From Escherichia phage V18, in sequence record NC_041937.1: a stretch of DNA of 64,000 nucleotides; one strand, given 5' to 3'. Positions 39,279 through 53,914 of the stretch are shown here, one piece after another. The first letter of the stretch is position 1, and every line of letters starts with the position of its first letter. A program made the translations under genes and the position numbers. The notes under the pieces were generated by a model. That model saw nothing but the letters and a program-made list of their open reading frames with translations. It was not told where the DNA came from and ran no database searches.

Positions 39279-39305
39279 GGGAGGCTTGCGCCTCCCTTTT
39301 CCTTT
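39279..39305 (+). terminator. rho-independent terminator after exonuclease gene
   Basis: GGGAGGC-TTGC-GCCTCCC hairpin followed by TTTTCCTTTT. Confidence 0.55.
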
Positions 39306-40132
39306 TGGAGGCACTTTGAGCAAGAAAGAGTCCAACGACAAATACTACACAAACCCTGAGTATGCAGAATATCTTGTTGGTAAAGTAAAAGATAAGTATG
39401 GGAATTGTGCATACGTTGAGCCTTCTGCTGGAAGGGGTTCTTTTTCAAAACTATTTTCAGAGATACTGTCGTACGATTTAGTACCAGATCCTGAATTTGA
39501 AGGACCAACACCGTGCATTCAGGCAAACTTCTTGGAGGTGCATCCCAAGGCAGATGTCTTCATAGGTAACCCACCATTTGGCAAGAATTCATCCTTAGCT
39601 TGCAAATTCTTTAACCATTGTGCATCATTGCTAGAGCTTGGAGGGGCTATAGCCTTCATCTTGCCACGGACATTTGAAAAAATTTTTTTCAAACAAACTG
39701 GACATGTCGATGCACCTTGTCTACAGCGAAAGGTGCCCTAAGAATTCGTTTTTACTTAATGGCAAACCTTATGACGTGCCATGTGTTTTCCAAATTTGGG
39801 AGAAAAAGGCGTGCAATAGGGATCCTGTAGAGATTGGAGAGAATAAGTTATTTTCTTTTAGCACACCAGATGACTACGACTTCTGTGTAAGACGTGTTGG
39901 GTATAATGCTGGAAAAGTATTGGGGGATGATGACCCAAAATCTGAAGAATCAACATATTTCATAAAATCTTTAGTTAACGGTGTTGACAGAGTGTTTGCT
40001 GAATGCTATTCTTCTTTTCAAGAAGAAGCAGGTAAGACTGCTGGAATGAAGAGTATAGGTAAGAAAGAACTACAATACATTTTGGAGACCAGGTATGATC
40101 AAAAGCATAGACTTGACCAAAGAACTTACTGA
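39286..40132 (+). CDS. N6-adenine DNA methyltransferase, frame change at homopolymer tract near 39671-39700
   Basis: EPSAGRGSF (motif I) and IGNPPFG (motif IV) in first ORF; second ORF continues in another frame after A6T7 tract; start codon unclear (no ATG). Confidence 0.55.
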
Positions 40133-40553
40133 TGCAAAAGCTTTTGGTGAGACAGCGGTACAAAGAGGACAGGCGATGGGACTGGCACTACCTTTCGTCT
40201 TAAAAGAGCACTTTACAGATTTTCAACTTATCAAAGGTGATAAGGGAATGCTTATCCTGGAGCATAAGTTGAGTAAGAAACGCTATAAAGTCGTTTTTAA
40301 TTCTAAAGCTCCAACAAAACTGGGATTCAGAACTTACAATCTTAACCCATCCTACACTAAGGGTGTTGGAAGGGTAGAACAACAGCATTTCAGTGCCAGA
40401 GCTTCTTTAGCCCCTTTGATGCTAAATTTCTCAGGGGTGGCTTTAGGATACCTTGATAAGAAAAGGGTTCTTCATGTTCGTTTCACAGACTTTGTAACGC
40501 TTTTAGCTAACAACGAGGTTGATGAGAAGGGACGTGTAAAAACAAACTTCTAA
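40095..40553 (+). CDS. hypothetical protein
   Basis: 152 aa ORF downstream of methyltransferase. Confidence 0.4.
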   Translation: MIKSIDLTKELTDAKAFGETAVQRGQAMGLALPFVLKEHFTDFQLIKGDKGMLILEHKLSKKRYKVVFNSKAPTKLGFRTYNLNPSYTKGVGRVEQQHFSARASLAPLMLNFSGVALGYLDKKRVLHVRFTDFVTLLANNEVDEKGRVKTNF

Positions 40554-40564
40554 TAACGCATAGT

Positions 40565-40780
40565 ATGATTGGAGACCGAAATGACACAATGACACTAGAG
40601 TTAACAATTCCAGACAGCTTTTCAGAAAACTTTATCCCAGAAATGATGAGTAAGATGCGATCATTGCTTGATCAGATTGAGGAGGCTGTTTGGGAAGACG
40701 ATGCTGTAGTGGCTAACGAGCTGGTAGATAAGTGTAAAAGTATTATTGATGCAGTTGAAGAATACCACGGAGGTTTTTAA
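40565..40780 (+). CDS. hypothetical small acidic protein
   Basis: 71 aa ORF coupled to next gene. Confidence 0.35.
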   Translation: MIGDRNDTMTLELTIPDSFSENFIPEMMSKMRSLLDQIEEAVWEDDAVVANELVDKCKSIIDAVEEYHGGF

Positions 40781-41394
40781 TGGATATTATTGTTCTTAAC
40801 GCCCCACCCAGCAGTGGTAAGGATCACATTGCAGATCTCTTGTTGGAAGCTATTCCTAACTCACACCACCGTGAGGTTAAGGAAATGCTCTTCAGTGTGG
40901 CAATTAAGGCAGCTGGTGTAACTCCTCAACTCTGGAATGCACTTTATGACCGCCACTACAAAGAAGAGCCTTGCCCTTTCTTAATGATAGACGGCAAGCA
41001 TGTTTCTCCGCGAGAATGGATGATCCATTGTAGTGAAAATCTGATTAAACCTATCTTTGGTGAAGATGCTTTCGGTAAAGCCGCAGTCGCATCTTTGAAG
41101 AAAGATTTCCCTGAAGGTAAAGGGGTTATTGTTTACTCCGATGGGGGATTCAAAGAGGAGCTGGCATGCCTTAGCGAGTACGCATACAGCACAGGTGGAG
41201 ATCTGTTGTTGTTCCGTATTCACCGTGTAGGATATGACTGGGGAAATGATTCCAGAACCTATCTAAGTCTGGAAAAGAACGGAATAAAAGGGGTTGAGTT
41301 TGATGTTGTAAACCCTGAAGGTGCACCTTGGGAGTGTGCATCGGAGATTGTGTGCAAGTATATTGATGTTAAAGAGGCCCAAGAAGAATGTTAA
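40780..41394 (+). CDS. P-loop nucleotide kinase (dNMP kinase-like)
   Basis: IIVLNAPPSSGKDHIADLL resembles T4 dNMP kinase Walker A region. Confidence 0.5.
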   Translation: MDIIVLNAPPSSGKDHIADLLLEAIPNSHHREVKEMLFSVAIKAAGVTPQLWNALYDRHYKEEPCPFLMIDGKHVSPREWMIHCSENLIKPIFGEDAFGKAAVASLKKDFPEGKGVIVYSDGGFKEELACLSEYAYSTGGDLLLFRIHRVGYDWGNDSRTYLSLEKNGIKGVEFDVVNPEGAPWECASEIVCKYIDVKEAQEEC

Positions 41395-52222: not shown

Positions 52223-52282
52223 AGGTAAATGTGAATCAGGTTTAAATAAATAGCTTTCAACTTCCAATATTAAGGATTTCTC

Positions 52283-53329
52283 ATGAATTTAACACCTCGC
52301 AGCACCATGGTACACGGCATGAAAGAAAAACAGAACGGTTTCGAACCTATGAGTAATAAAATGTTTGGTATGCCGGGTGGTATCATGGAAACATACAGCT
52401 ACCCAACACCTGTTGTTGACCACGTTCTTTATATCGACGATTTGGAAGACCTGCAGGATCATATGTCTCGTCTGCAGACGATCCGTATGGCTCAGCCGGA
52501 AGAAAGCATTCGGGTGATCATCAATAGCCCTGGGGGTTGCGTGCACATTGCAATGGCTTATCTACAGGCATTCCGCGAGTCTCAGGCAAGCGTTGTTGCA
52601 CATGCTGAAGGGATGTGCTGCTCTGCGGGAACAATCTTATGGCTGGGTTGTAAAGAACGCACTGTGGCTCCGGACACAGAATTTATGTTCCACTACTATC
52701 AAGGTGGCACTTATGGTAATGGTGTGAACATGAATACTCAGGTCAGCTACTGGAAAAAACGTTTTGAACGCCTGATCGAAAAATACTACGGTGGGGTGCT
52801 GACAGAAGATGAGATCGCATCCATCACAGCTGGTGGTGAAGTGTGGTTGGACGGAGAGGAGCTGGCAGCTCGAACTGGAGCCATCATTCTGGATGAAGGC
52901 AACATACAACGCATCCAGAATGGACAAAAACCTAAAAAGCTTCTGGCAAAAGGTGATGAAGGCGTGTTAGGTGAAGCAGGTCTTCCGGAGATTCACCAGT
53001 GCACCTCTTTAGATGAGCTAGTTCATGCTGTTGAATCTGCGAAAGCGGTTGGTTCGAAAGGTGATGTTCACACTGTGTTCCTGAATCTGCAGATGGAAAG
53101 TGGTGAGACCATTAAGATTGCCTTAGGTGAGATTACCTCAGAAGATCTGCAGCGATTCTCTGTCGTTGAACTTCAAGACATTCTGTCCCAATTGAAGACA
53201 ACCCTGAACGGCGGTGAAGAGGTTAAGGTAAAAGATAAGACTCGCAAGCGTCTGGTGGACAATATTATTAAAACAGCAAAAGAACTCAATGAAAAAATCC
53301 TGGGTGCAGGAATTGTCGAAGAAGCTTAA
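52283..53329 (+). CDS. ClpP-like (S14 family) serine protease with long acidic C-terminal extension
   Basis: RVIINSPGG, catalytic-Ser context GMCCSAGT, His context FMFHYYQGG; about 150 aa helical acidic tail; terminator hairpin follows. Confidence 0.65.
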   Translation: MNLTPRSTMVHGMKEKQNGFEPMSNKMFGMPGGIMETYSYPTPVVDHVLYIDDLEDLQDHMSRLQTIRMAQPEESIRVIINSPGGCVHIAMAYLQAFRESQASVVAHAEGMCCSAGTILWLGCKERTVAPDTEFMFHYYQGGTYGNGVNMNTQVSYWKKRFERLIEKYYGGVLTEDEIASITAGGEVWLDGEELAARTGAIILDEGNIQRIQNGQKPKKLLAKGDEGVLGEAGLPEIHQCTSLDELVHAVESAKAVGSKGDVHTVFLNLQMESGETIKIALGEITSEDLQRFSVVELQDILSQLKTTLNGGEEVKVKDKTRKRLVDNIIKTAKELNEKILGAGIVEEA

Positions 53330-53342
53330 ACATTAATTCTAA

Positions 53343-53365
53343 AGCCCTCTTCGGAGGGCTTTTAT
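53343..53365 (+). terminator. rho-independent terminator after ClpP-like gene
   Basis: AGCCCTC-TTCG-GAGGGCT hairpin followed by TTTT. Confidence 0.55.
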
Positions 53366-53380
53366 GATCTGGAGATTTGC

Positions 53381-53914
53381 ATGACTTGTGCTAGAAAACC
53401 TGATGAACAACGTAACGCCTACGATGAGTATGTGACACCGGAGTGGTGTGCAGAAGGGCTGTATGACCTTATTCCGTTCCCAGAAGACTGGACCTACTTA
53501 GAGCCTTGCAGGAATAGTGCCTCAGGTGTGTTCTACTCCCGTATGCCGTTAGGATCTGCATGGGGAGAAATCCAAGAAGGTGTTGACTATCTGAATACAG
53601 AATACAACCATGTTGACTGTATTATCACCAACCCACCATACAGTTTGGCTCGTGAGTTTGTAGACAAGGCGTTGAAAGATGCTGACGTAGTTATTATGCT
53701 TTTGCGTCTTAATTTTCTGGAAAGCAAAGCCAGATTTGAATGGTGGCTTGATAATGCACCTACCACTGTGATCACAATATCTAAGCGTCCATCTTTTCAA
53801 TCAAATGGCAGAACTGACGGGCAAGCATATGCATATTTTGTGTGGGATAAGAAAAACCGTTTAGGCTTGCCGCCATTTATGTGGTTGGCACCACCAGAGG
53901 TAGACCTGAAATGA
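53381..53914 (+). CDS. N6-adenine DNA methyltransferase
   Basis: IITNPPY (motif IV) and YVTPEW; 177 aa. Confidence 0.6.
   Translation: MTCARKPDEQRNAYDEYVTPEWCAEGLYDLIPFPEDWTYLEPCRNSASGVFYSRMPLGSAWGEIQEGVDYLNTEYNHVDCIITNPPYSLAREFVDKALKDADVVIMLLRLNFLESKARFEWWLDNAPTTVITISKRPSFQSNGRTDGQAYAYFVWDKKNRLGLPPFMWLAPPEVDLK

Follow-up and report, generated by a model that had tools for sequence, protein, structure and literature searches.

Two stand-alone DNA adenine methyltransferase genes in the genome sequence of the vequintavirus Escherichia phage V18: an ortholog of a GATC enzyme and a frame-split candidate for GTAC methylation

The 64,000-nt stretch of Escherichia phage V18 DNA analysed here (NC_041937.1; hereafter the window) carries two genes with the hallmarks of N6-adenine DNA methyltransferases, which we refer to as M1 (39316..40132, plus strand, frame-split) and M2 (53381..53914, plus strand). 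The genome belongs to the genus Vequintavirus, rV5-like myoviruses of E. coli, and the M1 and M2 genes match 119 and 117 vequintavirus records, respectively, at 90-99.8% identity; almost all of these records are Escherichia phages, rV5-like myoviruses with a genome of ~136 kb. The closest relatives, slur16, rV5_ev147, JeffSchatz and JohannBauhin (Bas53), are ~98% identical across 25 kb, and the gene order is that found in Bas53 and Bas51: an EndoVII-like endonuclease, a DnaQ-like exonuclease, M1, a nucleotide-metabolism block (thymidylate synthase, nrdAB, nrdD/G), PhoH, a ClpP-like protease and M2. An earlier note, made from the letters of this DNA, had proposed two separate adenine methyltransferase genes, the first disrupted (39286-40132) and the second intact (53381-53914). 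Both genes are present, as members of the families phrog_5172 (M1) and phrog_799 (M2) with fitting motifs and folds, and M2 is an uninterrupted reading frame of 177 amino acids (aa). The 2-nt frameshift in M1 is in the sequence as well, but the gene starts at 39316 and its split is probably artefactual.

In M1, the open reading frames (ORFs) 39286-39741 and 39674-40132 match positions 13-145 (E 3e-60) and 137-290 (E 3e-64) of phrog_5172, respectively. Since they cover consecutive parts of the same profile, they represent one gene split in two. Relatives possess a single 819-nt gene for a protein of 272 aa at this site, annotated as 'putative N6 adenine methyltransferase' or 'SAM-dependent methyltransferase' (SAM, S-adenosylmethionine), whose annotated start is a TTG codon corresponding to position 39316, with GGAGG located just 5' of it. 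Position 39286, where the first in-frame start codon puts the mechanical start of the ORF, falls within a terminator-like hairpin (39278..39297, plus strand; 8 pairs followed by a T-run) positioned between the gene for the DnaQ-like exonuclease and M1. The N-terminal fragment (39316-39741, plus strand), which contains motif I (VEPSAGRGSF) and motif IV (NPPF), is 100% identical to its Bas53 counterpart; the C-terminal fragment, read in the +1 frame of the plus strand and ending at 40132, is 98.7% identical. M1 is the ortholog of a conserved 272-aa gamma-class enzyme (bas51_0200, bas53_0193 and the rV5 'putative DNA N6-adenine methyltransferase'; phrog_5172) that has the same position and neighbors, and it is unlike bas51_0200 and bas53_0193 in its private 2-nt loss, which splits the gene. 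The relatives of M1 also carry the precomputed label PF26055.

Both proteins display the motif order of gamma-class methyltransferases. Motif I (EPSAGRG at residues 35-41 of M1; EPCRNSASG at residues 41-49 of M2) is placed N-terminal to a motif IV of the (D/N)PP(Y/F/W) type, which reads IGNPPFG at 83-89 in M1 (NPPF at 85-88) and NPPY at 84-87 in M2, and the N-P-P residues are invariant in 62 M1 homologs and 60 M2 homologs. Full-length M1 matches the PADLOC model MTase_II (E 2.4e-34). M2 matches phrog_799, labeled 'DNA methyltransferase', at E 5.5e-67; its relevant residues are LEPCRNSASG at 40-49, D69, D79 and ITNPPY at 82-87 (T83-NPPY). The AlphaFold models are confident (predicted local distance difference test, pLDDT, of 93 for the intact M1 ortholog and 89 for M2) and show a class I Rossmann fold. 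In Foldseek searches, the best Protein Data Bank (PDB) matches of the two models were adenine methyltransferases, namely M.BseCI, CamA, M.TaqI and the type I HsdM subunit, to which M2 added the Dim1/KsgA rRNA adenine methylases; M2 retrieved adenine methyltransferases at template modeling (TM) scores of 0.55-0.6. M.TaqI, M.BseCI, CamA and HsdM, all solved gamma-class enzymes, share with M1 and M2 the motif order X-I-II-IV, an (E)PxxGxG motif followed by NPP(Y/F) and the Rossmann fold (Foldseek E 1e-7 to 1e-5), but at ~380-610 aa these proteins are much larger than M1 (272 aa) and M2 (177 aa), and the sequence identity is only 10-20%. The TM-scores reach only 0.4-0.6 because the target-recognition domains differ.

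Several observations weigh against this classification. The Pfam models Eco57I, MTS, EcoRI_methylase and Dam all remain below the gathering threshold for both proteins (for PF07669 Eco57I, whose cut-off is 25.3 bits, M1 scores 15.7-16.8 and M2 13.2), an NCBIfam scan of M1 and M2 returned nothing above cut-off, the relatives of M1 are likewise sub-threshold in curated models, and some sources name them 'predicted RNA methylase'. A sequence search of the PDB gave no match for M1 and noise only for M2. From its motifs, its PHROG and PADLOC profiles and its predicted fold, M1 is nevertheless predicted to be a gamma-class N6-adenine methyltransferase. For M2, the methyltransferase call is carried by motifs, PHROG profile and predicted fold, and in addition by experimental work published for an ortholog with 99% identity.

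This ortholog is found in phage Bas51 (WalterGehring; MZ501111), whose genome contains two genes named N6 adenine methyltransferase, bas51_0176 (177 aa) and bas51_0200 (272 aa). M2, a minimal gamma-class N6-adenine DNA methyltransferase, is identical to bas51_0176 in 175 of 177 residues; the two differences are C-terminal (the window copy has G162 in place of D and V174 in place of A), the residues D69, D79 and T83 are conserved, and the genes have the same neighbors, with a ClpP-like protease upstream. Bas51 mutants that escaped two retrons were all mutated in 'the Bas51 N6 adenine methyltransferase', and the substitutions D69G, D79G and T83P were reconstructed in a clean Bas51 background; the enzyme triggers both retrons, Asa1 and Squ1, and its expression in E. 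coli is toxic (PLoS Biol 2025, PMC12548924). The T83P mutant and other methyltransferase mutants plate normally on the laboratory host, and native nanopore sequencing for N6-methyladenine (m6A) gave counts for the wild type and the T83P mutant, respectively, of 1405 and 35 in GATC, 509 and 511 in GTAC, and 576 and 349 at other sites (PMC12548924). Since the escaper residues D69, D79 and T83 fit M2, while the M1 ortholog has Q69, A79 and I83 at these positions, the enzyme studied in this work is the M2 ortholog.

In the Bas51 genome, GATC occurs 703 times (1406 adenines) and GTAC 258 times (516 adenines). As m6A is present at 1405 of the 1406 adenines in GATC and at 509 of the 516 in GTAC, both motifs are essentially fully methylated on both strands. 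Adenine methylation of phage DNA, on which the earlier note had made its proposal depend, is hence found in this relative, and the proposal withstands this check. The M2 ortholog bas51_0176 accounts for all GATC methylation of Bas51, on both strands; the host Dam enzyme does not keep up with phage replication and is no substitute, as only 35 of the 1406 GATC adenines are methylated in the T83P mutant. By analogy with its nearly identical ortholog, the M2 allele of the window should methylate GATC as well. The alpha-class Dam enzymes of E. coli and T4 share with M2 the m6A specificity for GATC and the solitary status, but differ from it in class and architecture. M2 scores 19.2 against the phage Dam family PF05869 (cut-off 28.1) and 16.1 against TIGR01712 (cut-off 97.05), and PF02086 (alpha-class Dam) gave no match. 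M2 works like Dam, yet it is no member of the Dam families. About 1.2 kb 3' of M2 (~55150-55670) lies an ortholog of bas51_0171, a 'putative glycosidase'; an R87* mutation in the Bas51 glycosidase also abolished the defense by retron Asa1 (PMC12548924).

GTAC methylation in Bas51 is independent of the M2 ortholog, as the nearly unchanged adenine counts in the T83P mutant show. The methyltransferases of E. coli K-12 are Dam, Dcm and EcoKI, with YhdJ being silent, and this host is not known to have a GTAC methyltransferase. The GTAC enzyme must therefore be phage-encoded. The earlier note had counted two orphan methyltransferases; both are indeed orphans, but the count was incomplete, since Bas51 has two further methyltransferase genes outside the region corresponding to the window, which makes four in this genome type. 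One of them, bas51_0070 (MZ501111 64456-65781; 441 aa), encodes a Type III Mod-like protein with a DPPF motif that matches PADLOC MTase_III at E 1.5e-205 and N6_N4_Mtase at E 4e-42 and has EcoP15I and other Mod subunits as PDB relatives; no Res subunit is annotated beside it. The other, bas51_0074 (MZ501111 67042-67806; 254 aa), is a Dcm-like C5 enzyme without a Pfam match. The candidates for GTAC methylation are thus M1 and the Mod-like enzyme bas51_0070.

The sites of Mod-type (Type III) enzymes are normally asymmetric and methylated on one strand. We favor M1 because the palindromic GTAC carries its mark on both strands, as is typical of Type II enzymes, and because the M1 family is a Type II family; by exclusion, M1 is the likelier GTAC methyltransferase of the two. 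That this link is made by exclusion, with a DPPF-containing Type III Mod-like enzyme at hand as an alternative, speaks against placing more weight on it. If the ortholog of bas51_0070 were the GTAC enzyme, M1 would be left with a different target, lack activity or work on RNA. The N6-adenine-type DPPF motif of the Mod-like protein and its strong N6_N4_Mtase match are in accord with this idea, as are the report of two m6A motifs for three candidate adenine methyltransferases and the RNA methylase label of some M1 relatives. The marking of both strands of the palindrome (509 of 516 adenines) and the restriction endonuclease partners of the Type II M1 family in bacteria are at odds with it, and the Mod-like enzyme could be responsible for the m6A at the 349-576 'other' sites; we therefore consider a GTAC specificity of bas51_0070 doubtful.

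A precedent for M1 as a GTAC enzyme is M.HpyAXII, a gamma-class methyltransferase of a Type II restriction-modification (R-M) system of Helicobacter pylori with its catalytic Asn at residue 87 (Asn85 in M1). This 331-aa enzyme, which is paired with a PabI-type nuclease, makes GTm6AC and thereby blocks RsaI (PMC2588503). It shows that a gamma-class enzyme can place the mark that M1 may also make. The ratio of observed to expected GTAC sites is 0.50 in the window, the lowest among the 16 palindromic tetramers, and 0.59 in Bas51, where GTAC is the second lowest of the 256 tetramers after CTAG; GATC is not avoided (0.98-0.99). GTAC is hence under-represented in Bas51 although it is fully methylated there, and its avoidance points to nuclease pressure at this sequence. 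A corresponding comparison of bacterial loci harboring M1 relatives did not discriminate between those with and those without a restriction endonuclease partner (GTAC observed/expected 0.72 versus 0.78), and literature searches for an assignment of GTAC methylation in vequintaviruses yielded only a methods line and a data table of the retron paper. We lean somewhat toward a picture in which M1 is the compact 272-aa gamma-class enzyme behind the complete GTm6AC methylation, and was captured from a Type II R-M family; taken together with the two-fold avoidance of GTAC, this would make GTAC-cutting nucleases a main selective pressure on these phages.

No restriction endonuclease lies beside either gene, as the earlier note had stated. 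M1 is preceded by the gene for the DnaQ-like 3'-5' exonuclease (38281..39270, plus strand), a replication gene and not a restriction enzyme, and is followed by an ORF of 152 aa (40095..40553, plus strand; phrog_9938) that overlaps its 3' end by 38 nt. M2 is flanked by the ClpP-like protease gene upstream (52283..53329, plus strand) and by a gene for a 94-aa hypothetical protein downstream (53911..54195, plus strand; phrog_12158) that gives no nuclease signal. None of these flanking products matched a PADLOC nuclease (restriction endonuclease) model. The bacterial relatives of M1 (80 loci, mostly from Sphingomonadales and Rhodobacterales) present a different arrangement: in 16-17 of the 80 loci, the gene directly downstream on the same strand encodes a protein of ~210 aa with a conserved FDI...D...PTSIK motif that matches PADLOC REase_II at E 7.7e-11 (for instance L016:1845-2498 and L022:3805-4404, among loci L013-L092). 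This partner probably represents a Type II restriction enzyme family without a Pfam model or PDB relative. A hidden Markov model built from it found no match in the six-frame translation of the window. The ORF 40095-40553 was considered as a hidden nuclease or a relative of the bacterial partner and was rejected, as BLASTP yielded no meaningful similarity and PADLOC and Pfam nothing. M1 and M2 are not part of a Type II R-M system with an adjacent cognate restriction endonuclease in the window.

The break in M1 maps to positions 39678..39696 (plus strand), where the window reads A6T7 (GAAAAAATTTTTTTC) and its relatives read A6-TA-T6-G, so that the window is on balance 2 nt short, with the losses placed at 39684 and 39690. 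The surrounding sequence is GAAAAAATTTTTTTCAAAC in the window and GAAAAAATATTTTTTGCAAAC in the relatives. An in-frame M1 sequence is present in 117 of 118 relatives; the remaining one, vB_Eco_Alma, differs by 1 nt. The A6T7 allele occurs in none of the 118 related phage records, and exact-pattern or megablast searches did not find it in IMG/VR, GTDB genomes, JGI metagenomes or complete E. coli genomes. The position of the break in an A6T7 tract could suggest that the split gene is still expressed through a programmed +1 ribosomal frameshift or transcriptional slippage, and if tRNA-Phe slipped by +1 on the T7 run (TTT TTC), the frames would indeed be rejoined to ...EKIF-S-NKLDM.... However, neither the slippery tract nor the split frames are conserved, so that this scenario has no evolutionary support and strikes us as hardly credible; a programmed frameshift gene was rejected on the ground that the slippery site is not conserved among the 118 relatives.

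M1 is one of several damaged genes in this sequence. Among 56 Bas53 proteins compared, six are frame-split in the window (RNA ligase, a hypothetical gene, a homing endonuclease, M1, NrdD and PhoH), while the corresponding numbers are 0 of 53 for rV5_ev147, 1 of 55 for bov10K2 and 2 of 31 for Bas51; the bov10K2 split and one of the two Bas51 splits reflect the nrdD intron. None of the relatives that cover the respective positions (3-4 of the four compared) shows the 1-nt deletions in the genes for RNA ligase (29598, plus strand), the homing endonuclease (34608, plus strand), NrdD (48772) and PhoH (51252, plus strand) or the loss of 2 nt in M1; the other changes of the window fall into diverged stretches of the hypothetical gene and of nrdD. 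Further private 1-nt deletions, scored by comparison with Bas51 only, affect the tape measure gene (11560), the baseplate hub gene (7973) and two hypothetical structural genes (15503 and 17908) on the minus strand. The private 1-nt deletions mostly shorten short G/C runs. The head module (18388-19728, minus strand) is collapsed, and its genes for scaffold, head decoration and major capsid protein have lost ~1.1 kb: 901 nt of the window correspond to 2007 nt, in six pieces, in all of the 12 best-matching relatives listed. The scaffold gene encodes 115 aa instead of the 325 aa found in Bas51, hardly anything is left of the decoration gene, and 183 nt are missing from the major capsid gene (274 versus 335 aa).

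Lesions in the capsid, scaffold, tape-measure and baseplate-hub genes are incompatible with a plaque-forming phage, and we therefore regard the sequence as a poor or patchy assembly. Because the A6T7 allele is unique and the same sequence carries private lesions in essential genes, the split in M1 most likely reflects a sequencing or assembly defect rather than a real pseudogene, as judged from these sequence comparisons. One feature does not sit easily with this conclusion: the M1 lesion consists of two changes flanking a T-run, whereas a single miscounted homopolymer would be the more typical error. A genuine loss of function, as in a natural M1-null isolate that escaped a host defense sensing the methyltransferase or its mark, would also account for a lesion that is, after all, present in the sequence. 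Retron escape through methyltransferase mutations is documented for the sister gene M2, and vB_Eco_Alma combines its 1-nt length difference at the same site with a split annotation. If the frameshift were real, and provided that M1 is the GTAC enzyme, the isolate would be a natural GTAC-unmethylated variant. Yet the allele was found nowhere else, the private frameshifts and deletions in the major capsid, scaffold, tape measure and baseplate hub genes hit functions needed for viability, and the frameshift load is at least six-fold above that of the relatives, all of which makes a natural M1-null phage improbable. Given the lesions in essential genes, gene disruptions in this sequence should not be interpreted biologically.

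Three side observations concern the same region and the same records. The nrdD gene (47899-49808) is an intron-less allele that reads in four frame segments. It lacks 2 nt ('CA') exactly at codons 216/217, the intron site of bov10K2 (258 nt) and of Bas51 (798 nt, with a homing endonuclease), and, besides its 1-nt deletion, is synonymously recoded at 48843-48863, a stretch that has 2 extra nt. Relative to Bas53, 8 nt are duplicated in tandem (AATGACAC AATGACAC) at 40573-40588; the duplication adds an upstream ATG and is placed just 5' of, or at the start of, a small ORF (40565-40780). Finally, ~18-21 unannotated GenBank records of 'Campylobacter phages' (MG0656xx; host given as C. jejuni) share 95-99.5% identity with rV5-like phages of E. 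coli across the M1 and M2 genes and look like mislabeled or contaminant genomes.

During infection, M1 and M2 would be made and would methylate the replicating phage DNA as small gamma-class, SAM-dependent N6-adenine enzymes, with M2 acting on the adenine of GATC on both strands and M1 most probably on that of GTAC. These marks would be expected to block nucleases of the MboI/DpnII type (GATC) and of the RsaI/HpyAXII type (GTAC) and thus to protect the phage genome. Such an anti-restriction role, proposed in the earlier note as self-protection against host restriction, is the conventional reading and a plausible one. It has to be set against the description of the Vequintavirinae as 'exceptionally susceptible' to R-M systems in the BASEL study, in which, however, none of the six systems targeted GATC or GTAC. 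The only demonstrated effects of the M2 ortholog, the triggering of retrons and toxicity in E. coli, represent a cost, and the 2013 rV5 genome paper mentions neither methylation nor restriction.

The main role of the two enzymes might instead be to let the fast-replicating phage DNA pass as 'self-like' in host processes that depend on Dam (MutH nicking, regulation, packaging), or they might be selfish remnants of R-M systems. The nearly complete loss of GATC methylation when only the host Dam acts on the phage DNA, the pronounced sensitivity of vequintaviruses in R-M tests and the normal plating of T83P and other M2 mutants on the laboratory host can be read in this way. The strong avoidance of GTAC, which points to nuclease pressure, and the recognized use of orphan phage methyltransferases as an anti-restriction device argue for protection, and a mainly non-defensive function appears to us the less likely one, if with some hesitation.

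M1 and M2 are two of the four conserved stand-alone DNA methyltransferases of the vequintavirus lineage. We consider it probable that the two are explained as stand-alone methyltransferases of this lineage, M2 for GATC and M1 most probably for GTAC, with the split of M1 an artefact. Both genes are annotated in more than 100 public vequintavirus genomes, and the function of the M2 ortholog has been published, so that they were already known; what is observed here holds true but is unremarkable, an established gene pair seen in a poor-quality sequence from an extensively sampled genus of phages. The published Bas51 methylome contains, besides GATC, a second fully occupied m6A motif, GTAC, and M1 is the best candidate for the enzyme that methylates it.

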